Counted from the first letter of the stretch, positions 4,336 to 49,139 are shown. The stretch is 64,000 nt of DNA from an uncultured Holophagae bacterium (GCA_963710645.1 CAVQBD010000009.1:1551199-1615198), one strand, 5' to 3'. Notes: generated by a model from the letters alone, not told the origin. Translations and numbers: made by a program.

Positions 4336-4404
4336 AGGTCAATCAGAAAGGACAACAGTAATGAGATCATCCGACCCAGGGGTTTCATGTTTTCCCTCGG
4401 GGGA

Positions 4405-4416: not shown

Positions 4417-4492
4417 ACGATCGGTTTGGGGGATCGGTCGTGCGAACTGAACGGCCCGGTTTGGGCCATGAACCAAGGAGAGGGAGGTAGCA

Positions 4493-7192
4493 ATGACGTC
4501 ACATCGTTTCACCCGATACAGGACAGTCTCAACCTTCACACTCGTGATGGCTCTGGTGTCGATCACTGCGGTGGCGCAGGACGGGACCGGGGTCATCACC
4601 GGAACGGTGACTGGATCTGCGGGCAATGCCATTGAGAGCTGTCGGGTCACCATTGAGGACATGAACAGGGAAGCCACCACCGGGATGGACGGCACATACC
4701 GGTTGGCTCCGGTACCGGCAGGAGAGAGAACCCTGGTCTTCAGTTTTCTCGGGCTGCAACCGGGAACCGCCACGGTGACGGTTGTGGCGGGTGAGACCGT
4801 CAACCTGGACATGACCCTTCTCTACGGTGGTGAGATCGAGGTTCGTGGATCACCGTTGCTGGTCGGGCAGGCAAAAGCGCTCAACCAGCAAAAGAACGCC
4901 ATCAATATCTCGAACATCGTGGCCGCCGACCAGATCGGCCGCTTCCCCGACAAGAATGCCTCCGAGGCGACCCAGCGAGTGCCCGGTGTCAGTCTGGCGC
5001 GCGACATGGGTGAGGGCCGTTACGTCATCATCCGCGGCACCGAGGCCAGGCTCAACTCGACCACGGTCAACGGCGAGCGGATTCCGTCGCCGGAAGCGGG
5101 CGTCCGGAACGTCGCCCTCGACACCATCCCGGCTGATCTCCTGGGCTCGATCGTGGTTTCGAAGGCCCTGAGACCGGACATGGACGGCGACTCCATCGGC
5201 GGCACCGTCGATCTGGTGACCATGAGGGCTCCCGAAGAGACTCGGGTGTCGGCCGCCCTTGGTTTTGGCTACAGCGAGCTGATGGAAGAAACAGCCCCCA
5301 CCGGCACTGCCACCTTCGGGACTCGATTCGGACCCGATTCGAAGTGGGGTGTGCTGGTATCGGGAAGTTATAGCGACACCAAGCGTGGGGCCGACAACAT
5401 CGAGCCGGCGTACGACGACGGCGAACTCGAAGAACTCGAGATGCGCGATTACACCACCGAGCGTCAGCGGTCCGGCATCACAGCCGACCTCGACTACCGG
5501 GCAAACGCCCGCTCGAACTACTATCTCCGCGGTCTTTGGACCAACTACGTCGACGATGAAATCCGGCGCGCCAAGACCAACAAGGTTGCCGATGAGGAAC
5601 TCGAGCGATCGCTCAAGGACCGCAAGCAGGAGTCCTACATCAACTCCATTTCCTTCGGCGGCGAGAACAACATCGGTGAGGCCTTCGTCCTCGACTACCG
5701 CGTGATGTACAACAAATCACAAGAAGAAACCGACCACCAGTACACCTCGGCCTTCGAGATGGGAGACGTGATCTTTGATACCAACGTCAGTCCCGATTCC
5801 ATCGACCCGAACAACATTCAGGCCAATCCGCTAAACGAGGATCCCGCCGATTTCTGGTTCGCGGACATCGAGGACCTGAGCAAGCAAGCCCACGAGGAGG
5901 ACTTTGTCCTCGCCGCCAACCTCACCAAGGGCTTCTACAAAAACGCAGGTTTCAGCGGGCTTTGGAAGGTGGGCGCGAAGTACCGGACCAAGAACAAAGA
6001 CCAAAACTACGACGTCTACGACCTCGAGGCGGATGACGACTTGAACATGGTTCCGTTTCTGGACGACTGGAACTCCGAGACCCCGTTCTTCAACGGGATC
6101 TATGGTGATCAAATTTTCCCGTTCCAGGACCCCGATCTCATGAGGGAGCTCGGCGCGAGCGGGCTCCTGGAATCCGAGAGAAATCTGGAGGAGGATCTCG
6201 CCGACTTCGATATCACCGAGGACACCCTGGCCGCCTATGCCCTGGGCGAATTCCTCTTCGGCGCGAAATCCACCTTCATGGGTGGCGTTCGAGTGGAGAG
6301 CACGTCGGATGACTACATGGCCTACGAGCTGATCCTGGATGAAGAAGGAGACGCGGTGTCGCTGTTGCCGGTTTATGGCGACAAGAGTTGGACCGAGTGG
6401 CTGCCCCAGTTCCACTTCATCTACAAGACCGGAAACGACTCTCAGCTCCGCGCCGCCATCACCCGCAGTCTGGCCCGGCCAAACTTCGAGGACATGGCCC
6501 CGTGGCGGCTGACCAACCTGGAGGACCGTGAAGTCGAACTCGGCAATCCCGATCTGGATGTCACCACCGCCTGGAACCTCGATCTCATGTGGGAGAAGTA
6601 CCTGCAACCGGTGGGCATCCTCTCGGCTGGGGTCTTCTACAAAGACCTGACCGACTACATCTACATCTTCCAGGTCGATGACGTCATCGAAGGCGAAGAT
6701 GTGGAAATCACCCAGCCGCGAAACGGCGACAAGGGCACCTTGGCGGGCCTCGAGTTCGCCTTCCAAAACCAGTTCACAAACTGGGATGGATTCTGGGGAG
6801 GATTTGGTCTCTACCTCAACTACACCTACGTCGACTCCGACGCCAAGTACCCGGACCGTGAGTCTACCTCGCTGCCCGGGCAGTCGGAACACGTGGGCAA
6901 CCTCGCGCTGGTCTACGAGAAGTACGGCATCACCACCCGGCTGGCATACAACTACAACGGCAAACAGCTGATTGAGGTTGGCGGGGACGCCGACGAGGAT
7001 ATTTATGTCGACGACCACGGCCAGCTCGACTTCATGTTCCGTATCCAGGTCGCGAAGAGGTTCAGCATCATCGCCGAGATCATCAACATCACCGACGAGC
7101 CGTACACCGCCTATGAAGGCACCCCGGACCGGATCCGCCAGCAGGAGTACTACAGCTGGTGGGCGACGCTCGGCGTGAGGTTCGACCTTTAG
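4493..7192 (+). CDS. TonB-dependent outer-membrane receptor with N-terminal carboxypeptidase-regulatory-like domain
   Basis: 899 aa. Signal peptide, CarbopepD_reg-like GVITGTVTG...GTYRLAPVPAGERTLVFSFLG, plug region (NISNIVAADQIGRFPDKNASEA) and long beta-barrel ending ...TLGVRFDL. Strong SD GGAGAGGGAGG upstream. Confidence 0.9.
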   Translation: MTSHRFTRYRTVSTFTLVMALVSITAVAQDGTGVITGTVTGSAGNAIESCRVTIEDMNREATTGMDGTYRLAPVPAGERTLVFSFLGLQPGTATVTVVAGETVNLDMTLLYGGEIEVRGSPLLVGQAKALNQQKNAINISNIVAADQIGRFPDKNASEATQRVPGVSLARDMGEGRYVIIRGTEARLNSTTVNGERIPSPEAGVRNVALDTIPADLLGSIVVSKALRPDMDGDSIGGTVDLVTMRAPEETRVSAALGFGYSELMEETAPTGTATFGTRFGPDSKWGVLVSGSYSDTKRGADNIEPAYDDGELEELEMRDYTTERQRSGITADLDYRANARSNYYLRGLWTNYVDDEIRRAKTNKVADEELERSLKDRKQESYINSISFGGENNIGEAFVLDYRVMYNKSQEETDHQYTSAFEMGDVIFDTNVSPDSIDPNNIQANPLNEDPADFWFADIEDLSKQAHEEDFVLAANLTKGFYKNAGFSGLWKVGAKYRTKNKDQNYDVYDLEADDDLNMVPFLDDWNSETPFFNGIYGDQIFPFQDPDLMRELGASGLLESERNLEEDLADFDITEDTLAAYALGEFLFGAKSTFMGGVRVESTSDDYMAYELILDEEGDAVSLLPVYGDKSWTEWLPQFHFIYKTGNDSQLRAAITRSLARPNFEDMAPWRLTNLEDREVELGNPDLDVTTAWNLDLMWEKYLQPVGILSAGVFYKDLTDYIYIFQVDDVIEGEDVEITQPRNGDKGTLAGLEFAFQNQFTNWDGFWGGFGLYLNYTYVDSDAKYPDRESTSLPGQSEHVGNLALVYEKYGITTRLAYNYNGKQLIEVGGDADEDIYVDDHGQLDFMFRIQVAKRFSIIAEIINITDEPYTAYEGTPDRIRQQEYYSWWATLGVRFDL

Positions 7193-7208
7193 GGAAACGA
7201 GAAACATC

Positions 7209-8240
7209 ATGAAGGACGTGATCGTCGGCGTTGTCGGCATCGGTCGAATCGGCCGGATGCACGTGTACAACTTGGTGCACCGGATCCCATGGGCCCGGGT
7301 GAAGGCGGTGGCCAGCCCGCATATCGACGTGGACTGGGCTCGTCAAATGGACATCCCCGTGGCCACCACGGATGCCGATGCGCTGTTTCACGATCCTGAA
7401 ATTCAGGCAATCGTCATTGCTTCCCCCTCGGGGCGGCACGTCGAGCTGATTCGGCGTGCCGCCCATTCGGGAAAGCACATCTATTGTGAAAAACCGGTCG
7501 CCTTCGAGGAGGAACCCATTCTCGAGGCGATGCAAGCCGTTGAGACCGCCGGGGTTCAGCTCCAGGTGGGTTTCAATCGCCGCTTCGACCCCAGCATCTG
7601 CCGGATGGCCGAAGCGGTCCGCGACGGAGCGGTGGGCTTGGTCGAGGGTGTACGGATCGTCAACCGCGATCCGTCCGCCCCGCCCATCGATTTTGTGCGG
7701 CGGTCCGGCGGCATGTTCTTCGATTTCACGATCCACGATTTCGACACGGCCAGGTTTCTGAGCGGCAGCGAGATCGAGGAGGTCTACGCGGCAGCGGCGG
7801 TGCTGATCGACCCGGAGATCGGCGCCGCCGGTGACATCGACACTGCGCTCTTGACCCTGCGGTTGGCCAACGGCGCCCTGTGCACCATCGACAACAGCCG
7901 CCAGACTAACTACGGCTATGACCAGCGGTTCGAGGTCTTCGGATCAAAGGGTAATCTGGTGGTGGACAATCTCCGACCCACCACCATGGAGGCCTTTCTG
8001 GAAGGCGGAGTTTTTGCAGACAAGCCCCTTCCCTCGTTTCCCGATCGATACCAGGACGCATTCGTCAGCGAGCTGGAGGCCTTCGTCGGCTGCGTAGCCG
8101 ATGGTTCGCCGGTGTCGGTCACGGCCGCCGACGCGCTGGCGTCGGTGCGGGCCGCAAAAGCGGCAAGGACCTCGATGTTGGAAAACAGACCGGTGCGGGT
8201 CGCATCTGTGACGACGACCGGGGAAGGGGTCGGCCGATGA
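7209..8240 (+). CDS. Gfo/Idh/MocA-family NAD(P) oxidoreductase, inositol 2-dehydrogenase-like (paralog 1)
   Basis: 343 aa. Rossmann start VGVVGIGRIGRMH and EKP motif (IYCEKPVA), in an inositol-pathway context. Confidence 0.8.
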   Translation: MKDVIVGVVGIGRIGRMHVYNLVHRIPWARVKAVASPHIDVDWARQMDIPVATTDADALFHDPEIQAIVIASPSGRHVELIRRAAHSGKHIYCEKPVAFEEEPILEAMQAVETAGVQLQVGFNRRFDPSICRMAEAVRDGAVGLVEGVRIVNRDPSAPPIDFVRRSGGMFFDFTIHDFDTARFLSGSEIEEVYAAAAVLIDPEIGAAGDIDTALLTLRLANGALCTIDNSRQTNYGYDQRFEVFGSKGNLVVDNLRPTTMEAFLEGGVFADKPLPSFPDRYQDAFVSELEAFVGCVADGSPVSVTAADALASVRAAKAARTSMLENRPVRVASVTTTGEGVGR

Positions 8241-9235
8241 AAGAGATCATCACCGGTGTTGTGGGGGCCGGCAGGATCGGCAAACTCCACGCCGACAATT
8301 TGGTTGCGATGCCAGGGATTCGACTGAAGGCCATCGCCGATCCGTTCATCGTCCCGGACGAGTGGACGAATCGTGGGATCGCGCCGATTCTCGATCCCGA
8401 AGAGGTGATCAACGATCCCGAGATCGAAGCCGTCCTCATCTGCTCGCCGACCCCGACCCATGCGGATTTCACCGAACAGGCGGCCGAGGCCGGTAAACAC
8501 ATCTTCTGCGAAAAGCCGATCGCGCTCGATCCCGAACGGGTCCGCGAAACGCTGCGGGTCGTGGAGAGAGCCGGGGTCACGCTCCAGGTGGGTTTCAATA
8601 GGCGTTTCGACCCCACCTTCGCCAGAGTCCGCAGGGCGGTGGCCGACGGCGAAATCGGCGACATCCACATCGTCAAGGTCATGGCGCGGGATCCGGCGCC
8701 ACCTCCGGCGGAGTATGTGGCGGCCTCGGGTGGGATGTTTCTCGACATGACCATCCACGACTTCGATATGGTTCGCTTTCTCTCCGGCAGCGAGGTGGAA
8801 GAGGTCCAGGCCTTCGGCACGGTTCTGGTCGACCCCGCCATCGGGGAGGCCGGCGATGTGGATACCGCGGTGCTGACGCTCAGGCTGGCCAACGGCGCCT
8901 TGGCGGTGATCGAAAACAGCCGCCGCGCGGTGTTTGGCTACGACCAGCGAGTGGAGGTCTTTGGGTCGAAGGGGGGCGTGGAGGCGTTCAACGAGTCACC
9001 GTGCCAGGTTCGGCGGCGCACCGCCGAGGGCGAGCGTGCGGAAAACCCGCTCTACTTCTTTCTGGAGAGATACCGCCAGTCGTTCATTGCGGAGCTGGAG
9101 GCCTTTTTCACCTGCATCAGGGAAGATTCCCCGCCTCCGGTCACCGGTCGGGATGGGCTGATCCCCCTCCTCATCGGTGTGGCGGCCAAGCGGTCGATGC
9201 GCGAAAACCGACCCATACGGGTCGAGGCGCCGTGA
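8237..9235 (+). CDS. Gfo/Idh/MocA-family oxidoreductase, inositol dehydrogenase-like (paralog 2)
   Basis: 332 aa. GVVGAGRIGKLH and IFCEKPIA. Clearly paralogous to the upstream gene. ATGA start/stop overlap. Confidence 0.8.
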   Translation: MKEIITGVVGAGRIGKLHADNLVAMPGIRLKAIADPFIVPDEWTNRGIAPILDPEEVINDPEIEAVLICSPTPTHADFTEQAAEAGKHIFCEKPIALDPERVRETLRVVERAGVTLQVGFNRRFDPTFARVRRAVADGEIGDIHIVKVMARDPAPPPAEYVAASGGMFLDMTIHDFDMVRFLSGSEVEEVQAFGTVLVDPAIGEAGDVDTAVLTLRLANGALAVIENSRRAVFGYDQRVEVFGSKGGVEAFNESPCQVRRRTAEGERAENPLYFFLERYRQSFIAELEAFFTCIREDSPPPVTGRDGLIPLLIGVAAKRSMRENRPIRVEAP

Positions 9236-10578
9236 ATCCGTTCAGGTTTCTCGCCACCGGGGCGGATAAACCGCTGCTGGAGGATCAGGGCCTGATTGAC
9301 CGGCTGTACAAACGGCACCGATTGCGCATCATGCTGGCGATCACAATCGGATACGGCCTGGTCTACACTTGTCGTCTGGCGCTCTCGGTGGTCAAGAAAC
9401 CGCTGATCGATGGCGGCATCTTCACGCCGGAGCAGCTCGGGACAATCGGTTCCGCCCTGTTTTACACCTATGCCTTCGGAAAACTCACCAACGGGTTTCT
9501 CGCGGACCACGCCAACCTGAAATTGTTTTTTGCGGTCGGTGTGCTCGGTTCGGCGTTTCTGAACCTCGGCATGGGCTTCTCCACCGTGATGTGGGCTTCG
9601 GTGTTGCTGTGGGCCCTCAACGGCTGGTTCCAGGGATTCGGCGCACCCTCCGGTGCGGTGGCCATGGCCAGCTGGTTTTCAAACCGCGAACGGGGGAGGA
9701 TCTACGGCATCTGGAGCACCGCCCACGCCATCGGCGAGGGGCTCACCTTTGTGGGCGTGGCTGCGGTGGTGGCGATGTGGGGATGGCGTGCGGGTTTCTG
9801 GGCGCCGGGCCTGATGTGCATTTTCGTGGCCGGAGCCCTCTATCTGCTCATGCAGGATCGTCCACGCACCATGGGTTTGCCCGCAGTGGCCGACTGGAAG
9901 GATGACCACTGGAGCGGAGCGGAGGGTGCGGATGCCGAAAAGGGCACCTGGACGACCCAGCGCTCCATCCTGAAGATCCCCGCCATCTGGGTGCTCGCCC
10001 TGTCGAGCGCTTCGATCTACGTCACCCGCTATGCCATCAACAGCTGGGGCGTGTTGTATCTCCAGGAGGCCAAGGGCTACTCCCTGCTTCAGGCGGGCAG
10101 CGTCATCTCGGTCAACACCCTGGCCGGGATCATCGGTGCGGTGGCCTTCGGCTTCTCCTCGGACAAGATCTTCAAGGCGCGGCGACCGCCCACCAACGTG
10201 ATCTTCGCCGTCATCGAGCTTGTGGGTCTGGGGCTGATCTTCTTCGGTCCCAGCGGCCGTCCGGCCTTCATGACCTTCGCCTTCTTCATCTACGGCTTCG
10301 GCTTGACGGGGCTGATCACGTCGCTCGGCGGGCTCTTCGCGCTCGACATCGCGCCGAAGCGCGCCGCCGGGGCGGCCATGGGTTTCATCGGGGTCTTTTC
10401 CTACCTGGGTGCTGCGATCCAGGACCAGATCAGCGGCTACCTGATCGGCCAGGGAAGCACCATCGTGGACGGTGTGCGGTATTACGACTTCAGCAGTGTG
10501 ATCGTTTTCTGGGTTGGCTCGTCCATCGTATCGGCGGTTCTGGCGACCACCCTCTGGCGAGTCAAGTTACGGGACTGA
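9232..10578 (+). CDS. MFS transporter, organophosphate:Pi antiporter (GlpT/UhpC-like) family
   Basis: Track ORF 9001..10578 trimmed to the GTG at 9232 (GTGA overlap with the upstream stop). The product is multi-TM. The N-terminal RLRIMLAITIGYGLVYTCRLALSVVKKPL resembles OPA-family signature regions. Confidence 0.75.
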   Translation: MNPFRFLATGADKPLLEDQGLIDRLYKRHRLRIMLAITIGYGLVYTCRLALSVVKKPLIDGGIFTPEQLGTIGSALFYTYAFGKLTNGFLADHANLKLFFAVGVLGSAFLNLGMGFSTVMWASVLLWALNGWFQGFGAPSGAVAMASWFSNRERGRIYGIWSTAHAIGEGLTFVGVAAVVAMWGWRAGFWAPGLMCIFVAGALYLLMQDRPRTMGLPAVADWKDDHWSGAEGADAEKGTWTTQRSILKIPAIWVLALSSASIYVTRYAINSWGVLYLQEAKGYSLLQAGSVISVNTLAGIIGAVAFGFSSDKIFKARRPPTNVIFAVIELVGLGLIFFGPSGRPAFMTFAFFIYGFGLTGLITSLGGLFALDIAPKRAAGAAMGFIGVFSYLGAAIQDQISGYLIGQGSTIVDGVRYYDFSSVIVFWVGSSIVSAVLATTLWRVKLRD

Positions 10579-10587
10579 GGAACCTCA

Positions 10588-11541
10588 ATGAGCAACCGAC
10601 AGACGATATACGACGTTGCAGCGATCGGAAACTACACAAAGGACACGGTGGTCCACCCGGCGGGGACTCGCCAGGTCGACGGCGGAGGCGTTCGCTACGC
10701 GGCCTATGCGGCCGCCGGCCTCGGCTGTCGCGTCGCGGCCCTCACCAGGCTCGCCCACGAGGATGCCCGGGTTGTGGCTGATCTCGAGCAGGCCGGGGTC
10801 GACGTCTTCCCCGTCTTCACCTCGGATTCGACTCAGATGCGGCTCGAGTATCCCACCACCGACCCCGACCAGCGGACTCTCACGGCGGCCACCACCGCCG
10901 GGTCGTACACCGTGGAACACGTCGATTCAGTTGCGGCCCGCAGCTATCTGATCACCGCCTCCATTCGGGGCGAGGTTCCTGTGGAGGTTGTTCGCCGGCT
11001 TCGGGCGACCGGAGCCACCATCGCCCTCGACGTCCAGGGCTTTGTCCGCATCCGCCAGCCCGACGGGAGACTCGTGCACGCAGAGTGGCCTGACGCGTCC
11101 CTCGTACTTTCAATGGTGGACATCCTCAAGACCGATGCTGTGGAAGCCGAGTCGCTGACCGGTGAGTCGGACCCGGAAATCGCGGCGCGGCAGCTGGCCG
11201 AGCTGGGCCCGACCGAGGTGCTCGTCACCCATCGGGACGGGCTGCTCGTGCTCGCCGACGGCACGATTCATGAAGCTCGATTCCATCCCAAGGAAATGGT
11301 GGGCCGCAGTGGACGCGGCGACACCTGTCTGGGGTCGTACACCGCGGCGAGACTGGGCGTTGAGCCCGCGGAGGCCACCATCTGGGCGGCCGCGATCACC
11401 AGCCTCAAGATGGAGTCGGACGGTCCATTCCACCGAGGGATCGCCGAGGTGGAGGATCTTCTGCAACGAGAGTACGGACTGGTTCCGGGTGGACCCCCGG
11501 TTCCTGCCCCAATACCAACGGGGAACAATGCCGGGGCGTGA
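10588..11541 (+). CDS. PfkB-family carbohydrate kinase
   Basis: 317 aa. PfkB C-terminal signature region GRSGRGDTCLGSY. Occupies the same position as the kinase in Thermotoga-type iol clusters. Confidence 0.8.
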   Translation: MSNRQTIYDVAAIGNYTKDTVVHPAGTRQVDGGGVRYAAYAAAGLGCRVAALTRLAHEDARVVADLEQAGVDVFPVFTSDSTQMRLEYPTTDPDQRTLTAATTAGSYTVEHVDSVAARSYLITASIRGEVPVEVVRRLRATGATIALDVQGFVRIRQPDGRLVHAEWPDASLVLSMVDILKTDAVEAESLTGESDPEIAARQLAELGPTEVLVTHRDGLLVLADGTIHEARFHPKEMVGRSGRGDTCLGSYTAARLGVEPAEATIWAAAITSLKMESDGPFHRGIAEVEDLLQREYGLVPGGPPVPAPIPTGNNAGA

Positions 11542-11574
11542 ATCCCCGAGCTGACGAAATGGAGGAAGAAGTCC

Positions 11575-12732
11575 ATGAAAGGTATGGTTCTTGACGCGAA
11601 GTGGGATCCCAAGGCGGACTACACGGTATCGGATTGGGAGAAGGAGACGGGGAAGGCCATCACGGGAAACGCCATCTGGAGAAATCCGACGCTCGAGGTG
11701 CGTGACTGGCCCGATCCCGAACCGGGACCACAGGAGGTCGTGCTCGCGATCCAGGCCTGTGGTGTCTGCGGTTCGGATATGCACTTCTATGAGACCGATG
11801 ACCAGGACTACATCCTGTATCCCGGACTGACCAAATTTCCGACCATCCTCGGCCACGAGTTCTCGGGCAAGGTGGTGGCGACCGGGAAAGACGTCAAGCT
11901 TCTCAAGATCGGCGACATGGTGACCGTGGAGGAGATGATCTGGTGCGGCCGTTGTATTCCGTGTCGCAACGGATATCCCAACCACTGCAGCAATCTGGAA
12001 GAGATCGGTTTCACGATTCCGGGTGCGTTCGCGAATTTTATCGCCGTGGACGAAAAATTCTGTTGGAAGATCGACGCCATCGCCGAACGGTACGGTAGCG
12101 AAGAAAAGGCCTATGCCGTGGGTGCACTCACCGAGCCCACCTGCGTCGCATACAACGCCATGATCGAACGGGCCGGCGGATTCCGTCCCGGCCACTATGT
12201 GAACGTGGTTGGTGCGGGTCCCATCGGGCTCGCGGCCATCGGGATCGCCAAGGCGGCCGGTGCCGGCATCATCGCGGCATTCGAGGTTTCCCCGAAACGG
12301 CGCGAGCTGGCCAAGCTGGTGGGCGCGGATTACGTCTACGACCCTCGAGAGGTCAGCACCGGTGAGGTGCTGATGGAGCTCAGCGGCGGCGCGGGCTTCG
12401 ATTTTCACGTCGAGGCCGCAGGGGTCCCGGAGATCGCGATTCCCGAGATGGAGAAGGCGCTGGCCATCAACAGCAAGATCGTCCAGATCGGTCGTGCGGC
12501 CAAGCGAGTGCCGACCTATTTCGAGGCCTTCCAGGTCCGCCGCGCCCAGGCGTACGGGGCGCAAGGGCACTCGGGTCACGAGACCTTCCCCAACGTCATC
12601 CGCATGGTGGCCTCGGGGCGTCTCGATCTCAGCCCCATCATCACGGCGCACTACGGTCTTGACCAGACCGTCGCCGCCATCGCGAAATCGGTGGAACGGT
12701 CCGACGGCAAAATCATGGTGAACCCGAACTAG
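11575..12732 (+). CDS. iolM: Zn-dependent MDR alcohol dehydrogenase, scyllo-inosose 3-dehydrogenase (IolM)-like
   Basis: 385 aa. CGVCGSDMHFYE Zn-ligand region, GHEFSGKVV, GAGPIGLAA Rossmann. The iolM assignment rests on gene context and my recollection of the T. maritima pathway. Confidence 0.6.
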   Translation: MKGMVLDAKWDPKADYTVSDWEKETGKAITGNAIWRNPTLEVRDWPDPEPGPQEVVLAIQACGVCGSDMHFYETDDQDYILYPGLTKFPTILGHEFSGKVVATGKDVKLLKIGDMVTVEEMIWCGRCIPCRNGYPNHCSNLEEIGFTIPGAFANFIAVDEKFCWKIDAIAERYGSEEKAYAVGALTEPTCVAYNAMIERAGGFRPGHYVNVVGAGPIGLAAIGIAKAAGAGIIAAFEVSPKRRELAKLVGADYVYDPREVSTGEVLMELSGGAGFDFHVEAAGVPEIAIPEMEKALAINSKIVQIGRAAKRVPTYFEAFQVRRAQAYGAQGHSGHETFPNVIRMVASGRLDLSPIITAHYGLDQTVAAIAKSVERSDGKIMVNPN

Positions 12733-12762
12733 TCACCGAGACGAGGAATCCGGGAGTCGAGT

Positions 12763-13803
12763 ATGGACGAGTTGCGTGTCGCAGTCGTTGGCGTGGGTCG
12801 CATCGGGCTGACCCATGCCGAGCACCTGGCCCGGCGGGTGCGCGGTGCGCGGCTCGTCGCTGTCACCACGTCACGGGCTGACCGCACCGACGCAGTTCGA
12901 GCGGTCTGCTCAGACGTGGCGGTCTACCCTACCACCGAGTCCATGCTGAAGAACGAGGGCCTCGACGCGGTGGTCATCGCCAGCAGTACGTCGGCCCATG
13001 TGGACAACGTCGTGCAGTGCTCGGAAGCCGGGCTGCACATTCTGTGCGAGAAGCCCCTGTCCCTCGATCTCGATGGCTGCGACCGAGCGGTGTCGGCCGC
13101 CGATGCCGCAGGCGTGAAACTGATGATCGGTCACGTCCGCCAGTTCGATTCCGGCAACCTCGAAGCCAAGAAATTGATCGACGGGGGCGCCATTGGCCGA
13201 CCGGTGCTCTACCGGTCCATCAGCGGTGATATGGACCCGCCGCCGGCCAGCTTCGCCGACCTCGGCGTCAGTGGTGGTCTGATCCTGGACTCCATGTACC
13301 ACGACATCTACCTCGGACGCTGGCTCATGGACGACGAGGTGGTCCGTGTTTTCGGCGAAGGTGGTGCCCTGATAGATGACGGTGTGCGGTCGGTGGGAGA
13401 CGTGGACAATGCGGTGGTCAGCCTCCGGTTCGAAGGCGGTTCCATGGGGACCCTCACCGCCAGCCGAGTCACCAGGTACGGCCATGATGTGCGAGGCGAA
13501 GTGATCGGCGACGAAGGAGCGGTCCAGATCGGCCGTTATCGCCACACTCCGGTGCGGCTCATGGACCGCCATGGCATCCATCACGACATGGCCCACACCA
13601 CACCCGAGAGGATGGGTGAGGCCTTCGTCACCATGTTGCAGGCCTTTGTGGATTGCATCGTCGACGACACCCCACCTCCGGTCAACGGCCGGGACGGGGC
13701 GGCGACGCTGACGGTGGCCCTTGCAGGTCGCCGGTCGATCCAGACCGGCCAACCGGTCGAGGTTGAAACAAAAACAAGGCCGTCATCTGGCGGCAAAACA
13801 TAG
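12763..13803 (+). CDS. Gfo/Idh/MocA-family oxidoreductase, inositol dehydrogenase-like (paralog 3)
   Basis: 346 aa. VAVVGVGRIGLTHA and ILCEKPLS. Confidence 0.8.
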   Translation: MDELRVAVVGVGRIGLTHAEHLARRVRGARLVAVTTSRADRTDAVRAVCSDVAVYPTTESMLKNEGLDAVVIASSTSAHVDNVVQCSEAGLHILCEKPLSLDLDGCDRAVSAADAAGVKLMIGHVRQFDSGNLEAKKLIDGGAIGRPVLYRSISGDMDPPPASFADLGVSGGLILDSMYHDIYLGRWLMDDEVVRVFGEGGALIDDGVRSVGDVDNAVVSLRFEGGSMGTLTASRVTRYGHDVRGEVIGDEGAVQIGRYRHTPVRLMDRHGIHHDMAHTTPERMGEAFVTMLQAFVDCIVDDTPPPVNGRDGAATLTVALAGRRSIQTGQPVEVETKTRPSSGGKT

Positions 13804-13836
13804 AGCTCTCGAAAGAAGCGAGAGAAGGAGCATCAC

Positions 13837-14961
13837 ATGGCAAACGCCCCAGAAGATCCACGGTTGCTGGCCACCGATCAGCCGGATCTGTTCTTCGAGG
13901 ACAACACGGTTGGACGGTGCAAGAAAGAAGTTTGGGACGCGAGCGACGCGGAGATCGACCAGATCCTCGCCGATTACGGGATTCCGTCCCCCTGCGAGTG
14001 GGGCAAGGCCGGGTCCTATATCCAGACCACGGTGCGCCACCAGGTCGAGGCCGAGCGTCGGAAAAACGACATCGTCTTCATCCCCATAGGCTGCACCGAG
14101 CTCCACGGCCGCCACCTCCCGAGCGCCTCTGACACCCTCTATGTCAGTCAGATCCTCGAGGGTGTGCGACGTTTCACCGCCAAGAGCGGGGCTCCGGCGA
14201 GTCTCGCGCTGCCGCCGCTCAACTACGGCTCCCACCCCTATCATCATCTGGGAATGCCGGGCACGGTCATCATCCGCGAGAACATCGCCCGCGAGTTCCT
14301 CATGGATGTCATGCTGGGCCTCTGGAACGACGGTTTCCGAAAGCAGATCCTGATCAACAACCACGGTCATCTGTGGATGCTCGAGTCGGCCATCCAGCAG
14401 TTCCAGAAGCGCTACCAGCTGCCGGGCGTCTTCCGCGTCATCGACTGGCACCGGGCGGTCCGCGAGTTCTTCCGGACCGAGCCCAAGGGCGGCAAGATGG
14501 ACACCAATTTCGTCCACGCCGACGAGTCGGAGACGTCACTCGGTCTGCTGCTCCATCCCGATATGGTGGATATGGACTATGCGGTGGACACCGAGGGCAT
14601 AGGCTACCTGCCGGATGGGCACTTCGACAAGTCGGTGGATCCCTTCAGCCGGCCGAGCCGCTGGTCCGAGGGAGAGGGCCACTTCGCCATCGAGATCGCC
14701 GCGACTCCCGAGGGGGTGGTCGGTAAGGCCACCCGGGGCACCGCCGAAAAGGCCAAACGACCGGTCGCCGCAATCCTCAAGTATCTGACCCTGCTCAACG
14801 ACCAGATCCTCGAAGCCTTTCCGGCGGGCACCGTGCCACCGGTGGAGATGGTCACCCTCCGCACCGAGGCCGAGATGGAGCCCTATCTCCGCGAGCCCTT
14901 GAGTGATGGATGGAAGCCGGTCTATCAGCTGCCGCGGATCGGTCAGGGATCAAACTCGTAG
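13837..14961 (+). CDS. iolN: Creatininase-superfamily hydrolase, 3-dehydro-scyllo-inosose hydrolase (IolN)-like
   Basis: 374 aa. Creatininase-family motifs IPIGCTELHGRHLP and HADESETS. The iolN call is by context. Confidence 0.6.
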   Translation: MANAPEDPRLLATDQPDLFFEDNTVGRCKKEVWDASDAEIDQILADYGIPSPCEWGKAGSYIQTTVRHQVEAERRKNDIVFIPIGCTELHGRHLPSASDTLYVSQILEGVRRFTAKSGAPASLALPPLNYGSHPYHHLGMPGTVIIRENIAREFLMDVMLGLWNDGFRKQILINNHGHLWMLESAIQQFQKRYQLPGVFRVIDWHRAVREFFRTEPKGGKMDTNFVHADESETSLGLLLHPDMVDMDYAVDTEGIGYLPDGHFDKSVDPFSRPSRWSEGEGHFAIEIAATPEGVVGKATRGTAEKAKRPVAAILKYLTLLNDQILEAFPAGTVPPVEMVTLRTEAEMEPYLREPLSDGWKPVYQLPRIGQGSNS

Positions 14962-14971
14962 GACAACTACG

Positions 14972-15775
14972 ATGAAACTCAGCGTCGTGCTGTCAACCCA
15001 CGCCGCCGCCTTCCAGGCGGTGGCATTCAAGGGCGATTTCGAGGCCAACGTGGCCAAGATCGCCGGTTGGGGTTATGACGGTGTCGAACTCGCCGTGCGG
15101 GATCCAAATTTGGTGAACGCCGGCGAGCTCGAACGCGTCATCACCTCGCAGAATCTGGTCGTGCCCGCCATTGGCACCGGTCAGGCGTGGGGCGAGGAAG
15201 GACTTTCGTTCACCAGTGACGATGGGACGGTTCGGGCCGCAGCCATCGACCGAATCATCAGCCATATCCCGTTGGCCGAGCACCTGGACGCCATCGTGAT
15301 CTTGGGCCTGATTCGCGGTGTCACACCGGAGGGTCAGACCCACGATCAATCCATGGCCCACCTGGTGGAGGCCATCCGCGAATGCGCCGTGGCCGCCGAG
15401 GGGACCGGGGTGCGATTCGCATTGGAGCCAATGAACCGCTACGAAACTGACCTCATTCACTCGGCGGCGCAAGGGCTGGATCTGGTGGAGAGGGTGGGTC
15501 GAGACAACTTTGGATTGTTGCTCGACACCTTTCACATGAATATCGAGGAGCCCTCCATCGAGGAGAGCATCCGACTCTGCGGCGAGCGGATCTTCCATTT
15601 TCACGTGGCGGACTCGAACCGCTGGTACCCCGGAGCCGGGCATCTCGATTTCTCCTCGATTCTGCAGACTCTTGCCGAAACGGGCTTCGGCGGCTTTGTA
15701 TCCGGTGAATTCATGCCGCTGCCCGACGCCGATTCATCAGCCCAACGCGGCATTGCTCACTTGAGGAGCCTGTGA
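14972..15775 (+). CDS. iolO: Xylose-isomerase-like TIM-barrel sugar(-phosphate) isomerase/epimerase, 5-keto-L-gluconate epimerase (IolO)-like
   Basis: Track ORF 14903..15775 trimmed to the ATG at 14972 (MKLSVVLSTHA), 10 nt after the upstream stop. FALEPMNRYET and LLDTFHMNIEE are typical AP-endonuclease-2/TIM-barrel metal-site blocks. Confidence 0.65.
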   Translation: MKLSVVLSTHAAAFQAVAFKGDFEANVAKIAGWGYDGVELAVRDPNLVNAGELERVITSQNLVVPAIGTGQAWGEEGLSFTSDDGTVRAAAIDRIISHIPLAEHLDAIVILGLIRGVTPEGQTHDQSMAHLVEAIRECAVAAEGTGVRFALEPMNRYETDLIHSAAQGLDLVERVGRDNFGLLLDTFHMNIEEPSIEESIRLCGERIFHFHVADSNRWYPGAGHLDFSSILQTLAETGFGGFVSGEFMPLPDADSSAQRGIAHLRSL

Positions 15776-15814
15776 CACACGGACTGTGGGCGGCCGGCTG
15801 AACGGAGACAGTCT

Positions 15815-17290
15815 ATGAACCCGTTGGCGACTCTCGCAGGGGTGGACGATCTCGAAGTCGCACCCAGCTCCATTGTCGAGGCACAGGGCACAACCTACGC
15901 TCTGGCGACGCGCGACAACTCGAAATTCGTGGTGGTCCTCGGCGATTCGAGCGGTTTCGAGGGAGAAGATCACCGACCGGGCGGTGTACGTCTGTCTCCG
16001 GTGAGTCCATCCACACTGTCCGGGCTTCGGATGCGTCTGCCGTGGCTGCTGCCGGTTCCATTGGGGCTTCGCACCTCATTTGGTTTCGGTGACAGGCTCG
16101 GGCTCGCTACACCCGGGCACATCCGGTCCCTCCGGTCTCTCCGTGGAGCAACCCACGGCATCGCGCCCATCTTCGCCCAACAGTCGGTTCGGGAGAATTT
16201 TCGCACCGGCCGCACTCCCCGACAGGTGATGGACGATGCCGCCTGGGCGGTCTTCGAGCACGGTTGGCGCGACCCGTGGGGTGCCGATGCCGACCATCTC
16301 AAGACACCGGACGACGCCTCGAAATTCGCAGCCGCCGGCTTCACCTTCTTTACCATTGATCCGGGCGAGCATGTGGATGACGATGTGGACGCGGCCAATT
16401 TGGAGGCCAAGGTTCGAGGCCTGCCGTGGAGCTCCCTCGAGGACACCGTGGAGGATTTCGAAAGACGGTTCCTGTCTTCCCCCTTCGACCTCGAGGGCAC
16501 CTCGGTGCCATTCGACCGGGCATCGCTGTGGGGAGCCGCCGCAAAGTATGGCCGTGCTGTTGCGCACACGGCTGAGATGTATCGCCACATCGCTGCGATC
16601 ATGGAGGACCGGCCTTTCGAACTCGAGGTTTCGGTGGACGAGACCGACAGTCCGACCAGCGTGCCGGAACACATCTACATCGCGAGCGAACTGCGGCGGC
16701 TGGGGGTGCGCTGGGTGAGTCTGGCGCCCCGGTTCGTGGGACGGTTTGAAAAGGGTGTCGACTACATAGGCGACCTCGAGGAGTTCTCACGACAATTCGC
16801 TAAGCACGCTGCCGTCGCTCGCCAATTGGGACCATACAAGCTGAGCCTGCACTCTGGATCGGACAAGTTCAGCATCTACCCGGTTGCCAGTCGGCTGACC
16901 CGTCACGGTGCGAGGTCCCCCGGTCCGCTGGTCCACGTCAAGACCGCGGGAACCAGCTTCTTGGAGGCCCTGCGGGCCGTCGCCCGTGTCGATCCGGATC
17001 TGTTTCGGAGCGTCCTCGCCCTGGCGAAGGAGCGATACGAAAAGGACAAGCTGACCTACCACGTGTCGGCTGATCTTGCTCGGGTGGCCTCGCCCGAGGA
17101 CCTCGACGATTCGGAGCTCGAGGGTCTGCTCGAGCAGTTTGATGCTCGAGAGGTACTCCACGTGACCTTTGGATCCGCGCTGGATCGGTATGGCGATCCA
17201 ATCCGCGCGACCCTCGTGGAAAACAAGCAGGCGTATTCCGATGTGCTCACCTCGCACTTCGCCAAACACCTCGCGGATTTTGTGGATTGA
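15815..17290 (+). CDS. uxaE: Tagaturonate/fructuronate epimerase (UxaE)-like protein
   Basis: 491 aa. The size and the blocks SFGFGDRLGLATPGH and GADADHLK match my recollection of the UxaE family. Lies directly downstream of the IolO-like gene. Confidence 0.5.
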   Translation: MNPLATLAGVDDLEVAPSSIVEAQGTTYALATRDNSKFVVVLGDSSGFEGEDHRPGGVRLSPVSPSTLSGLRMRLPWLLPVPLGLRTSFGFGDRLGLATPGHIRSLRSLRGATHGIAPIFAQQSVRENFRTGRTPRQVMDDAAWAVFEHGWRDPWGADADHLKTPDDASKFAAAGFTFFTIDPGEHVDDDVDAANLEAKVRGLPWSSLEDTVEDFERRFLSSPFDLEGTSVPFDRASLWGAAAKYGRAVAHTAEMYRHIAAIMEDRPFELEVSVDETDSPTSVPEHIYIASELRRLGVRWVSLAPRFVGRFEKGVDYIGDLEEFSRQFAKHAAVARQLGPYKLSLHSGSDKFSIYPVASRLTRHGARSPGPLVHVKTAGTSFLEALRAVARVDPDLFRSVLALAKERYEKDKLTYHVSADLARVASPEDLDDSELEGLLEQFDAREVLHVTFGSALDRYGDPIRATLVENKQAYSDVLTSHFAKHLADFVD

Positions 17291-18730: not shown

Positions 18731-18772
18731 AGAAAATGAGAAATGAGAAATGAAAAATGAAGGACGTGAAAA
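18731..18772. repeat. Heptamer-periodic tandem array (AGAAAAT GAGAAAT GAGAAAT GAAAAAT ...)
   Basis: About 6 units of 7 nt, read directly, in the 159-bp gap between the LarA-like gene and phoD. Confidence 0.8.
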
Positions 18773-27734: not shown

Positions 27735-27740
27735 CAAAAA

Positions 27741-27855
27741 GTGAATAGTAAATAGTGAATAGTGAATAGTAAATAGACCGAGTTGGGGTCCCCACGCCCT
27801 TGCCGGACGGGAGGGGGCATATTCACTATTCACTATTTACTATTCACTTATTACT
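27741..27855. repeat. Pair of inverted heptamer arrays (GTGAATA/GTAAATA x5 and its complement x5) forming a perfect 27-bp inverted repeat
   Basis: 27741-27767 is the exact reverse complement of 27821-27847, checked base by base, with a 53-nt spacer. It lies between the convergent glpD and peroxiredoxin genes. The right arm contains the peroxiredoxin stop codon. Confidence 0.9.
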
Positions 27856-28461
27856 TGAGCTGCGCGACACCCCCAGCGACGCGAGCCGCTGGGCGATTTG
27901 GGTCCCGTGGGAGCCCGCGTCCACCTCGGTGATGATGTCCAAGATGGTGCCGTCGACGCCGATGATGAAGGTCCACCGCTCCGGGTACGACCGACCTTCG
28001 TGGACCACCCCGTAGGCCTTGGCAGTCTTTTTGTCCGGGTCGCTCAAGACCGGGTAGTCCAGATCGAGGGTCTTGGCGAACCGTCTATTAGTCTCGGGCG
28101 AGTCGCAACTGGCGGCGAAAAGGGCGATATCAAAGGCATCGAGGCCCGATCCGTCGGAGGTGGGGAGTTCGATTGCCTTGCCGCTTTCGAGTTCGACCAT
28201 CTGCGCATGGGTTCGTCCGCTGGCACGCAGCGAATCGCACTCGCTGGTTCAGCCGCCGGTGAAGGCCTTGGGGAACCAGGCGAGGACGACCACCTGCTTG
28301 TCGTGCAAGTCGTCGAGCGTGTGAGTCTCGCCGTCGCTGCCGGGAAGCTCGAAGGCGGGCGCTGGGTCGCCGATTCCCAGGGCGGGTGGGCCGGCAACCA
28401 CCGTGAGAGAGGCGCAGGTCATTGCGATACCCAAGACACAGATCGAAGGGAACGGTTTCAT
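27844..28461 (-). CDS. Secreted AhpC/TSA (BCP-like) peroxiredoxin with in-frame TGA at the peroxidatic Cys position: candidate selenoprotein, or alternatively a nonsense pseudogene
   Basis: Track ORFs 28249..28461 and 27844..28200 are in the same frame (offset 261 nt), separated only by the TGA at 28249-28251. Read-through gives ...VVVLAWFPKAFTGG-U-TSECDSLRA..., matching the Prx motif FxPxxFTxxC-T.E. Signal peptide at the N-terminus. Confidence 0.6.
28228..28246 (-). promoter_or_regulatory. Candidate bacterial SECIS-like hairpin just 3' of the in-frame UGA
   Basis: The mRNA reads UGA AC-CAGCGA-GUGCGAU-UCGCUG: a 6-bp stem (7 with G-U) and a loop starting GU. A second possible hairpin, CUGCG...CGCAG, lies 22-51 nt after the UGA. 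Neither was evaluated with a model. Confidence 0.3.
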
Positions 28462-28509
28462 CAGATACCTCTCTCTGGGTGGGCCTCGAGATTGGTCACC
28501 CGGGGCACA

Positions 28510-29505
28510 CTATTCGATGTGCTCGAGCAGGGAACGAGCCGTCGGGGCATCGGGACTGTCAGGGTCGAGCTCGAGGAACGCGCTGAAAGCCTCCTTCGCA
28601 CATTGGGTGTCAACGAGCTTGTTGCAGGTCAGACCGAGCTGGAACTTGGCCGGCGCCAGGTCCGGTTGCCGTTCCAGGATCACTTCGAGGAGCGCCCTGG
28701 ATTGCGCGTACCTGTTGTGGTCAAACAACGCCACCGAGTGCGTCAGGAGTTCGCTCGAGACCATCTCGGGCTTGACATCGGCGAGTCGCTGCGCCCACTT
28801 CACCATCCCTTCGGTGTTCCCCATCATCAATTCGGCGTAGTAGGCGGTGCCCAAAGCCTCCTCATTGTCGGGCTCGAATTCGAGCAGTTTCTCAGCCGCG
28901 TCGGCTGCGATCGCGTACTCGTCCTGAGCGATGGCCGCTGCAGCGATCGCGCGGTAGGCCTCGGGAAAATCAGGGTCGAGCTTGGAGGCCTCCTGGAACA
29001 TTGACAGTGCGATGAGGTAGTTCTCGGCCTGGAGAGCTCCAACCCCCTCGTTGAAGACTGATATGGCCTCCATGCGTTGGGCATTCGCCTGCAGTTCGGC
29101 GTCATCGACCGCCGCAGCGGTGGTGGCGGGATCTTCCGCAATCGTCGATTCATCCAGCGTAGGGAGGGTGAAAATAACCCTCGCTGGATCATTGGGGTCG
29201 GGATGGAACGTCGCCTCGGCGGTAGCGTACCCCTCCAGCGCCGCGGTGATTGTGTAGGTTTGATTCCAGTCAGGCACCCGCAGTTTGAAGGTGCCGTTCT
29301 TTTTTGTGGTGGTGGTGGGCTGGGGTCCGGCCGCCTGTGCGACCGCGGTGATGACTGCTCCGGCGAGAGGCTCGCCACTCATGTCCACGACCTCGCCTTG
29401 TATGGTGGTCGGCCCACCAGCGAAGGTGACGCTGGTCATCGTCGCCAGTGTGAGAACAAGAACAGCTGCCTCAAGAACAGTCGATATCTTATGAAGGTGT
29501 TTCAC
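28510..29505 (-). CDS. Secreted protein with carboxypeptidase-regulatory-like N-domain and TPR repeats
   Basis: 331 aa. Signal peptide. IQGEVVDMSGEPLAGAVITA...TFKLRVPDW (CarbopepD_reg-like). The C-terminal half has TPR-like AxxYxxAL repeats. Confidence 0.65.
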   Translation of the reverse strand: MKHLHKISTVLEAAVLVLTLATMTSVTFAGGPTTIQGEVVDMSGEPLAGAVITAVAQAAGPQPTTTTKKNGTFKLRVPDWNQTYTITAALEGYATAEATFHPDPNDPARVIFTLPTLDESTIAEDPATTAAAVDDAELQANAQRMEAISVFNEGVGALQAENYLIALSMFQEASKLDPDFPEAYRAIAAAAIAQDEYAIAADAAEKLLEFEPDNEEALGTAYYAELMMGNTEGMVKWAQRLADVKPEMVSSELLTHSVALFDHNRYAQSRALLEVILERQPDLAPAKFQLGLTCNKLVDTQCAKEAFSAFLELDPDSPDAPTARSLLEHIE

Positions 29506-29597
29506 TGCAAGCCCCCAGAGATTTCAGAATTCGTGACAGCGGCAGAAACCAGGTTCAACCCGCCCCGCCGTGAATCTGGCGAGCACTATACCGTGTT

Positions 29598-29674
29598 CGG
29601 GACTCGGGACTCGGGACTCGGATGAAGCAGCCGCTCGTGCGCTCCGATCAACCGAATCCCGAGCCCTGAGCCCC
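29598..29674. repeat. Inverted heptamer arrays: CGGGACT x3.5 (29598-29622) and CCGAATC CCGAGCC CTGAGCC CC (29652-29674)
   Basis: Read directly. The two arms are about 19/23 complementary, including a G-U-compatible position. Confidence 0.75.
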
Positions 29675-32084: not shown

Positions 32085-32168
32085 CATGCCTCATACCCCA
32101 CAACCCATACCCCGGGTGGGCGAAGGTCAACCCGGAACTCGCAACCCTCAACCCGAAACTCCTCAACG
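32085..32168. repeat. Heptamer-periodic arrays in one register (CATACCC/CACAACC then TCAACCC/GCAACCC/GAAACTC)
   Basis: 12 consecutive 7-nt units, read directly. The array runs into the stop codon of the patatin gene (32163-32165). Confidence 0.75.
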
Positions 32169-35933: not shown

Positions 35934-35978
35934 AGTAAATAATTTGCAATTTGCAATTTGCAATTTGCAATCTGTAAT
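35934..35978. repeat. Heptamer tandem array (AATTTGC x4 plus degenerate flanking units)
   Basis: Read directly. Lies between the convergent STAS gene and carB. Confidence 0.85.
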
Positions 35979-47848: not shown

Positions 47849-49138
47849 GTGTTCGGATGTTGCGAGGTGGGACCGGCGTGGGACAATTACGGCGTGACGC
47901 AGTTCATATCACGTGCCGAGGCGATCGAACTCGACCTGAGGGACCCGTTGGCAGGAAGCCGCCAGGAGTTCATGATCCCGGAGGGTGTCGTCTACCTCGA
48001 CGGCAACTCCTTGGGTCCGCTCCCAAAGCGCACCCTTGACCGGATCCAGCGGCTGATGACGGTGGAATGGGGAGAGGACCTCATCCGGAGTTGGACCGAT
48101 CACGGGTGGATCGACATGCCCGGGCAGATTTCGGCGGCGGTTGCGCCACTGATCGGAGCGGAGCCCGACGAGATTGCGGTGGCGGATTCGGTGTCGGTCA
48201 ATCTCTTCAAATTGCTGGGGGCCGGTCTGCGGCTGAGCCAGGGTCGTCGGGTCATTCTCACCGAAGAGGAGAACTTCCCCACCGATCAGTACATCGCCCA
48301 GGGGCTCGTTGAGCTGATGGCGGATCGGGCTTCGTTGCGAGTCGTGCCCCGAAGTGAGGTCGCCGACGCTCTCGATGAGGACGTGGCCGTGCTGATGCTC
48401 ACCCAGGTGGATTTTCGCAGCGGCGAGATTCACGATCTCCGGGATTGGAACGAGGCAGCCGAGGCGGTCGGCGCGCTGACCCTGTGGGATCTCTCCCACT
48501 CCGCGGGCGCGATTCCGGTGGACCTTGGTGACGCCGGCGCCGACCTTGCGGTTGGCTGCGGCTACAAGTACCTCAACGGCGGCCCCGGTGCACCTGCCTT
48601 CGCCTATGTTGCGCGCCGGCACCACGGCCGCCTGCGGTCTCCTCTGTGGGGCTGGATGGGTCATGCTGCGCCGTTCGACTTTGGTACCGACTACCGGCCG
48701 GCGCCGGGGGTGTCATCGCTCATCGTCGGCACGCCACCTATCTTGAGCCTTGCCGCCCTCCAATGCGGTGTCGAGACCGTGGCCGAGATCGGAATCCACC
48801 GTTTGCGGGCAAAGTCCATCGAGCTCGGCGAGATGTTCATCGCGGGTGTGGAAAGCACGTGTGACGGCCAGGGATTCGAGCTGGCCTCACCTCGAGATCC
48901 GCAGCGTCGGGGGAGCCACGTGTCGTTCCACCACCCGGATGGCTACGCCATTGTTCAGGCTCTCATCGCGCGTGGAGTCATCGGCGATTTCCGGGTCCCG
49001 GATCTGCTCCGTTTTGGATTTGCCCCCGCGTACCTGAGATTTGTCGAGGTTTGGGATGCGGTGGCTGCATTGGCCGAGATCATGGAGGCGCGGCAATGGG
49101 ATCAACCACGATTTCGGGTGCGGGCGAAGGTCACGTGA
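47849..49138 (+). CDS. kynU: Kynureninase
   Basis: 429 aa (alternative GTG start at 47894). YLDGNSLGPLP and PLP-Lys block GCGYKYLNGGPGAPAF. Confidence 0.85.
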   Translation: MFGCCEVGPAWDNYGVTQFISRAEAIELDLRDPLAGSRQEFMIPEGVVYLDGNSLGPLPKRTLDRIQRLMTVEWGEDLIRSWTDHGWIDMPGQISAAVAPLIGAEPDEIAVADSVSVNLFKLLGAGLRLSQGRRVILTEEENFPTDQYIAQGLVELMADRASLRVVPRSEVADALDEDVAVLMLTQVDFRSGEIHDLRDWNEAAEAVGALTLWDLSHSAGAIPVDLGDAGADLAVGCGYKYLNGGPGAPAFAYVARRHHGRLRSPLWGWMGHAAPFDFGTDYRPAPGVSSLIVGTPPILSLAALQCGVETVAEIGIHRLRAKSIELGEMFIAGVESTCDGQGFELASPRDPQRRGSHVSFHHPDGYAIVQALIARGVIGDFRVPDLLRFGFAPAYLRFVEVWDAVAALAEIMEARQWDQPRFRVRAKVT

Positions 49139-49139
49139 G

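Follow-up and report, generated by a model that had tools for sequence, protein, structure and literature searches.

The window studied here, meaning the whole stretch of DNA that was analysed, comprises 64,000 nucleotides from an uncultured Holophagae bacterium (GCA_963710645.1 CAVQBD010000009.1:1551199-1615198). Its subject is a peroxiredoxin gene on the minus strand with a TGA inside its reading frame. The minus strand from 28461 to 27844 was translated as one frame, and the sole internal stop was the TGA at 28251..28249, which is codon 71; no further stop and no frameshift was found in 28461..27844 by translation. In the list of open reading frames (ORFs), the gene appears as a 70-aa ORF (28461..28249) and a 118-aa ORF (28200..27844) that starts from an internal ATG (28200) in the common frame. 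The databases also hold both halves of the gene as separate proteins. The first-pass annotation of this DNA, made from the sequence alone, had described the two ORFs as in frame and split only by the TGA at 28249-28251. The translation agrees with this description, and the 16 codons from the TGA to the internal ATG were also open. The peptide read through the stop, WFPKAFTGG-[TGA]-TSECDSLRA, was reproduced as it had been given. It is very probable that the two listed ORFs are one gene, encoding an exported peroxiredoxin of the AhpC/TSA family with a catalytic selenocysteine (Sec) at the in-frame UGA and a conserved RNA hairpin. The features of the locus are listed in Table 1.

Table 1. Features of the peroxiredoxin locus in the window (SECIS, selenocysteine insertion sequence; nt, nucleotides).
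Feature	Position	Strand	Basis or remark
Predicted selenoprotein gene, complete	27844..28461	-	205 codons, one internal stop
Start ATG of the peroxiredoxin gene	28461..28459	-	Translation
Terminal TGA of the peroxiredoxin gene	27846..27844	-	Translation
In-frame UGA, predicted Sec codon U71 (codon 71), peroxidatic position of PxxxTxxU	28249..28251	-	Translation, alignments
Shine-Dalgarno-like AGAGAGAGG (putative function)	28468..28476	-	GAGG core 6 nt 5' of the ATG, direct reading
SECIS-type hairpin UUCGCUG-CGUGC-CAGCGGA, 7-bp stem, 5-nt loop	28216..28234	-	Covariation in TGA forms
Apical loop CGUGC	28227..28223	-	Part of the 28216..28234 hairpin
Signal-peptide-like N-terminus, residues ~1-23: MKPFPS, hydrophobic ICVLGIAMTCASLTVVA, possible VVA|G cleavage	28393..28461	-	Hydropathy heuristic
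Cys75 codon TGC, candidate resolving Cys, U-T-S-E-C	28237..28239	-	Invariant in the 87-sequence alignment
Arg162 codon CGG in PERWTF, conserved peroxiredoxin active-site Arg	27976..27978	-	Invariant in alignments A1 and A4
Subfamily insertion, ~22-24 residues (~80-103), predicted beta-hairpin	28153..28224	-	Alignment gap against P0010 and P0071
CarboxypepD_reg + TPR protein gene, 48 nt upstream of the peroxiredoxin gene	28510..29505	-	Pfam
33-nt inverted repeat of heptamer arrays, arms 27736-27768 and 27820-27852	27736..27852		Between the glpD-like and peroxiredoxin genes

The protein searches were carried out with the window product in which U71 was replaced by cysteine (Cys). This product matched the Pfam family AhpC-TSA (PF00578) with 95.2 bits (3.5e-27, cutoff 26) and Pfam Redoxin with 56.9 bits. 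The AhpC-TSA match consists of two stretches that flank an insertion and span both ORF halves. At the column of codon 71, Cys is invariant in an alignment of 10 sequences and at least 90% conserved in one of 87 sequences. Every position of the active site P64-KAF-T68-GG-U71 and R162 is likewise invariant or at least 90% conserved in these two alignments. The nearest solved structures by sequence are BCP, PrxQ, and AhpE, and residue 71 aligns with the peroxidatic Cys/Ser position in the solved BCP structures. The Pfam match, the Cys column, and the BCP alignments bear out the earlier statement that the TGA replaces the catalytic Cys of an AhpC/TSA/BCP active site. A resolving Cys had also been expected shortly after the stop. 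Cys75 is a candidate for it, but it stands at +4 (U-x3-C) and not at the +5 of BCP/PrxQ, and it aligns one residue ahead of the resolving Cys in M. tuberculosis BcpB (5epf).

The best matches in sequence and fold are the BCP/PrxQ proteins (E. coli BCP, Sulfolobus Bcp1 (3drn), and M. tuberculosis BcpB) and AhpE. They share with the window protein the PxxxTxxC motif, the conserved arginine, and a second Cys soon after the peroxidatic residue. The window protein differs from BCP/PrxQ in its predicted Sec in place of the peroxidatic Cys, in the spacing of the second Cys, and in a presequence of ~25 residues. It is also not an equivalog of BCP or of PrxU: it scored 62.3 bits with the NCBIfam BCP equivalog (NF006960; cutoff 140) and 24.7 bits with NCBIfam PrxU (NF040737; cutoff 270). 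Since both scores are under the cutoffs, the predicted protein is assigned on its sequence to a separate AhpC/TSA subfamily, nearest to the BCP/PrxQ/AhpE branch. For the structure, a Cys homologue (P0004) with 52% identity and the same insertion was modelled with AlphaFold2 and stands in for the window protein. The predicted local distance difference test score (pLDDT) of the model was 91.3. Its template modelling scores, normalised to the target, were 0.77-0.81 against Sulfolobus Bcp1, BcpB, and AhpE (1xxu). The model indicates that the family has a thioredoxin-like peroxiredoxin fold, as seen through this Cys homologue. The insertion, which the closest clade has in its Sec as well as its Cys members, was modelled as a confident beta-hairpin with strands E85-88 and E94-97 (pLDDT >90). 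Residues 1-25 had low pLDDT, as a disordered N-terminus. In another Cys form, P0002 (a JGI/ENA contig, 204 aa, 59% identity), ~35 residues in the middle of the protein are abruptly divergent (…DTKPFCQGARPRLSRPERPGQVGRHGPR…), and then the family sequence resumes; this suggests that the contig carries a compensating frameshift pair or was misassembled there.

The listed ORFs could also be taken as two genes that function separately, one for a secreted peptide of 70 aa and one for a 118-aa protein made from the internal ATG, which is exactly the arrangement that gene callers predict. However, each half falls short of a complete thioredoxin-fold domain, and both the Pfam match and the modelled fold of the homologue extend over the two. 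Coding conservation also extends across the 16 codons from the TGA to the ATG (SLRASG...), and the internal start is shifted or missing in relatives such as the contig L004. Two separate genes are therefore scarcely credible at this locus.

The TGA was found again outside the window. A Logan assembly of the run SRR21856589, from a near-identical strain, covers window positions 27822-29009 with 4 mismatches in 1188 nt and retains the TGA, and the split into 70 and 118 aa is repeated in a contig of the run ERR12037370. In the orthologous metagenome contigs L001, L002, L003, and L004, a TGA likewise occupies the position of codon 71, and the frame is unbroken elsewhere. These four contigs represent three distinct sequences, and their read-through proteins have 68-72% amino acid identity to the window protein. 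The TGA is retained in L001-L007 and others. The closest database proteins among the matches listed (P0022, P0065, and P0106, 73-79% identity) are C-terminal fragments, and L001-L004 are the contigs that encode them. A scan with the family alignment was then applied to one genome per species of the GTDB, and the best 80 loci were kept, of which 76 were parsed and 4 were unparsed. The orthologue column, to which the first-pass annotation had pointed as a check, holds both kinds of codon: TGA in 45 of the 76 parsed loci and TGC or TGT in the other 31. Among the best 80 loci, TGA forms occur in Acidobacteriota, Planctomycetota, Verrucomicrobiota, and Myxococcota/'Deltaproteobacteria', and the two closest of them are from Ca. 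Sulfomarinibacter and Sulfomarinibacteraceae (64-67%). Chance does not explain a TGA that is repeated at one codon both in separately made assemblies and in the genomes of 45 species representatives.

Selection on the two sides of the TGA was compared between the window and seven TGA orthologues. The ratio of non-synonymous to synonymous substitution rates (dN/dS) was 0.11-0.24 after the TGA and 0.08-0.19 in the mature part before it, at a dS of ~1 and with one pair saturated. These values indicate that the sequence 3' of the TGA is under purifying, coding selection like the upstream part. They bear on the alternative, already raised in the first-pass annotation, that the locus is a nonsense pseudogene, in which a TGC-to-TGA mutation or a sequencing error hit a Cys peroxiredoxin and left the two ORFs as remnants. 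Such a change needs only one base, the database entries do split the halves into separate proteins, and no Sec machinery was seen within the 64-kb window. Nevertheless, the TGA is found again in independent assemblies as well as in representatives of 45 species from at least four phyla, the low dN/dS after the TGA is kept at a dS of ~1, the frame has neither frameshifts nor extra stops, and the TGA forms specifically are accompanied by a hairpin with compensatory changes. The conserved TGA, the dN/dS, and the covarying hairpin lead us to reject the pseudogene, which we regard as very improbable. Degraded relatives and a sequencing error had been named as signs that would speak against recoding; the orthologue frames were found intact, and independent assemblies have the TGA. 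In two of the 120 listed protein matches, tryptophan stands at the Sec/Cys position, presumably from a gene caller using a code with TGA as tryptophan. No entry carrying U was found among these 120 matches; that is, no member of the clade is annotated there as a selenoprotein.

The RNA following the UGA was analysed with the U of UGA numbered as 1. A conserved hairpin follows a 14-nt spacer, at 15-33 nt downstream of the UGA and inside codons D76-G82. Positions 18-24 pair with 30-36 and enclose the loop C25-G26-U27-G28-N29. In the TGA forms, the hairpin is made by the codons of S-L-R-x-S-G. Over 46 distinct TGA sequences, 96.0% of the cells were standard pairs, and five of the seven pairs were altered on both sides by compensatory changes. 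The pair 24-30, in which both nucleotides are third codon positions, is CG in 24 sequences, GC in 19, and UA in 2. The covariation score was 0.409 against 0.159 for shuffles, none of 500 shuffles scored as high, and partners slid along the sequence gave at most 0.077. In L060 and L069, the amino acids differ and the pairs are kept (TCA-TTC...AAT-GG). When the same structure was applied to 27 Cys forms, only 60.3% was paired. The arginine codon of the loop is CGT in 43 of the 46 TGA forms versus 6 of the 27 Cys forms. G26 and G28 of the loop are invariant in the TGA forms, and U27 is at least 90% conserved. RNAalifold was run separately on the clades with and without the insertion, and this hairpin was the sole consensus structure in each. 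No conserved lower stem towards the UGA was found in the 69-nt alignments by RNAalifold, only the upper hairpin of 6-7 bp. For bacteria, a SECIS element has been described as a stem-loop just 3' of the UGA with a small apical loop that contains G (PMC1088965), and a 7-bp stem with a CGUGN loop is what was found here. The hairpin fits a bacterial SECIS element and, as judged from the aligned sequences, one specific to the TGA forms.

Two hairpins had been proposed from the window sequence alone. The first, CAGCGA/UCGCUG, is present, but it starts 2 nt after the UGA rather than 5 and is not conserved in relatives. Its arms (positions 6-11 with 19-24) were 66% paired across relatives, and 112 of 500 shuffles were as good; it also competes with the conserved hairpin for the 19-24 arm. 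It was rejected as a functional hairpin since its pairing is no better than that of shuffles. The second was a possible stem 22-51 nt downstream, which overlaps only in part with the conserved stem-loop at 15-33 nt.

The SECIS of E. coli fdhF is a hairpin within the coding sequence, shortly after the UGA, whose small apical loop presents G-U and which is bound by SelB. The window hairpin is like it in lying in the coding sequence shortly 3' of the UGA and in having G-U in a small loop. It is unlike it in its unrelated sequence, in the lack of an evident bulged U, and in the lack of a conserved lower stem. It is a candidate for SelB binding. A few relatives with a Cys codon retain a SECIS-like hairpin. 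It is intact in L065 (3112) and L047 (3208), has CGG in the loop in L064 (3112), and has one mismatch in L019 (3190), which adjoins the TGA forms L017 and L018. On their sequences, these four Cys forms look like recent Sec-to-Cys conversions.

Because the TGA is conserved, Sec and Cys alternate at its position, the downstream part is under purifying selection, and the covarying hairpin belongs specifically to the TGA forms, we hold with high confidence that Sec is inserted at the peroxidatic position by SECIS-dependent recoding. The proposed course, drawn from what is established on Sec insertion in bacteria and on the chemistry of peroxiredoxins, is as follows. The ribosome would reach UGA71 during translation, and SelB carrying Sec-tRNA(Sec) would bind the hairpin 14 nt downstream through its loop CGUGC with the conserved G-U, so that Sec would be inserted and no termination would occur. 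The full-length chain would then be exported via the Sec protein-export pathway. There, the selenolate of U71, positioned by Pro64, Thr68, and Arg162, would attack the peroxide. The selenenic acid would probably be resolved by Cys75 into a selenenylsulfide, and an envelope thiol reductant would regenerate the enzyme.

Several observations weigh against this interpretation. Domains of SelA, SelB, and SelD were not found by Pfam among the ~50 genes of the 64-kb window, and neither was a tRNA(Sec); ARAGORN found no tRNA at all there. Rfam gave no match at the gathering threshold over the whole window, nor at E<=10 around the site. The folding of the window hairpin as a single sequence is unexceptional (z ~ -1.4), and the window sequence offers competing pairings, namely the CAGCGA/UCGCUG hairpin and another register seen in the fold of minimum free energy. 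Furthermore, export, the peroxide substrate, the role of Cys75, and the reductant are all parts that we infer. The isolated window hairpin has -7.3 kcal/mol. The single-sequence z-scores are weak; therefore, the support for the hairpin comes from comparative evidence. The flanks of 47 TGA loci contained no sel genes, and ARAGORN gave only tRNA-Lys and tRNA-Gln in them.

A recoding aided by the hairpin might also insert a residue other than Sec, either through SelB with a non-canonical tRNA(Cys) or through near-cognate read-through by tryptophan or Cys. The inserted residue is not readable from sequence alone, and SelB-dependent recoding of UGA to Cys with a non-canonical tRNA(Cys) has reportedly been described before, by Mukai and co-workers in 2016 and by Vargas-Rodriguez and co-workers in 2018 (both cited in PMC8762117). 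However, the site is the classic catalytic column of Sec/Cys exchange in a family that already uses Sec. The upkeep of a costly UGA with a SECIS in 45 lineages merely to obtain Cys, despite relatives with TGC, is less parsimonious. Moreover, no non-canonical tRNA(Cys) was seen within the 64-kb window. This alternative to Sec insertion is improbable, if less so than the pseudogene.

The general use of TGA in the window was also determined. In the gene set predicted from GC content at third codon positions (GC3), 38 of 56 genes end in TGA. TGA is an ordinary stop in these genes; therefore, a genome-wide reassignment of UGA is excluded. A raw scan for frames split by TGA returned 175 candidates, nearly all of them spurious in DNA of 62.5% GC. 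With the GC3-based gene set, no other TGA-split gene was found in the window and the peroxiredoxin alone remained; the remaining in-frame continuations across a TGA are adjoining complete genes. One candidate with three same-frame ORFs separated by TGA (49102-50006, minus strand) was rejected as spurious: it is antisense to an alpha/beta hydrolase gene (BD-FAE, 49041-50045, plus strand) and has no Pfam match.

The N-terminus of the window protein resembles a signal peptide. A hydrophobic stretch of 17 residues follows MKPFPS, and the maximum Kyte-Doolittle mean over 10 residues is 2.46. Neither a twin-arginine (RR) motif nor a lipobox was found in the N-terminus. Throughout the family, a hydrophobic presequence of 25-30 residues, usually ending in AxA, precedes the first peroxiredoxin strand (ELKVGDxAPxF). 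By the hydropathy heuristic, the same maximum is at least 1.6 in 78 of the 82 presequences of the family, whether of Sec or of Cys forms. Predicted export appears to be a trait of the whole family, and the window protein is probably periplasmic. An exported Sec-containing peroxiredoxin had been called unusual in the first-pass annotation; a presequence shared by 78 of 82 relatives is not peculiar to this gene.

Sec-containing peroxiredoxins with a TxxU motif (PF00578/COG1225) have been recognised as a prokaryotic selenoprotein family since 2005 (PMC1088965, PMC2398784, PMC1794560, PMC13188914), in agreement with the earlier remark that such selenoproteins are known from bacterial and metagenomic surveys. 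In the surveys of Zhang, Gladyshev, and co-workers, 43 sequences made it the second most abundant family of the Sargasso Sea, 253 sequences were counted in the Global Ocean Sampling (GOS) data, and 12 were known from genomes by 2006, with Acidobacteria already among the phyla containing selenoproteins (PMC1088965, PMC2398784, PMC1794560). The family is also included in a selenoprotein review of 2026 (PMC13188914). The window gene is like these survey sequences in its Pfam family, in the T-x-x-U placement of Sec, in its widespread Cys homologues, and in the SECIS stem-loop directly after the UGA. It is unlike them in that its clade (AWFPKAFTGG-U-TxEC) has a Cys at +4 and its closest members have a 22-residue beta-hairpin insertion. 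The terms 'signal peptide' and 'periplasm' are absent from the text of the published surveys of this family and of the 2026 review that were looked through. No literature specific to selenoproteins, Planctomycetes, and peroxiredoxins together was found, and none on how Sulfomarinibacter uses selenium. The clade may be particular in its signal peptide, U-x3-C spacing, and beta-hairpin insertion, and in the predominance of Sec in Planctomycetota, Verrucomicrobiota, and Acidobacteriota. PrxU of Eubacterium acidaminophilum is the experimentally characterised bacterial Sec-containing peroxiredoxin, with Sec at the peroxidatic position (cited in PMC13188914). It shares this position with the window protein and belongs to a different peroxiredoxin subfamily.

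The window gene fits the known definition of the Sec-containing peroxiredoxin family, and the result is mainly a correction of annotation that leaves current concepts unchanged. Both here and in dozens of metagenome-assembled genomes of four phyla, the records show the enzyme as a pair of meaningless fragments, and merging them corrects the inventories of proteomes and selenoproteomes. The gene also implies that Sec is used by this organism, which is most closely related to Sulfomarinibacteraceae (Acidobacteriota). The 45 TGA and 31 Cys forms, including the recent converts that still bear the hairpin, are a natural data set for Sec/Cys exchange and for the coding constraints imposed by a SECIS. 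If its export is confirmed, a selenoenzyme would be placed in the cell envelope. A further proposal is tentative, and we think it somewhat more likely to fail than to hold: the AWFPKAFTGG-U-TxEC clade could be a distinct, mostly Sec-using selenoperoxidase family of the cell envelope across Acidobacteriota, Planctomycetota, Verrucomicrobiota, and Myxococcota, with a cycle of a U-x3-C selenenylsulfide and an envelope reductant, systematically misannotated as pairs of ORFs and not set apart in the selenoproteome catalogues published so far. If true, this envelope family would represent a widespread selenium-dependent defence against peroxide outside the cytoplasm.

The neighbourhood of the gene is variable. 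The CarboxypepD_reg/TPR neighbour is syntenic only in close relatives (L001, L002, and the ERR12037370 contig), and no conserved operon partner or reductant gene was found across the 80 family loci. On its other side, the peroxiredoxin gene is convergent with a pair of genes for a glpD-like FAD oxidoreductase and a glycerol-kinase-like protein. This gene order also occurs in close relatives. The arms of the inverted repeat between them are 97% complementary and 51 nt apart, and we infer a role such as a transcript-end structure. The right arm (27820-27852) encodes the last peroxiredoxin codons and the stop. Because this arm supplies the end of the gene, the protein has a C-terminal tail (…SSSNK) that is missing in relatives.

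Tandem arrays with a period of 7 nt (3-6 copies, with a unit that differs per array) recur in the intergenic spacers of the window, which has 62.5% GC. They were located at 18734-18760, 27736-27776, 27820-27848, 29597-29621, 32128-32159, 35941-35971, 52323-52345, 55306-55374, and 59881-59910. The one at 55306-55374 consists of two abutting arrays, GAGCCCC x5.3 and then CGAATTT x5.0. The orthologous spacer of L001 (8350-8590) has heptamer arrays too, with unrelated units. We take these arrays to resemble in form the short tandemly repeated repetitive (STRR) sequences of cyanobacteria. Apart from these repeats, and with no relation to the peroxiredoxin, the region 1934-17290 is a neighbourhood for the utilisation of carbohydrates and inositol phosphates. 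It contains genes for a phytase, a LacI-type regulator, a TonB-dependent receptor, four GFO/IDH/MocA oxidoreductases, an MFS transporter, a PfkB kinase, a xylose-isomerase-like TIM barrel protein, and a UxaE tagaturonate epimerase.

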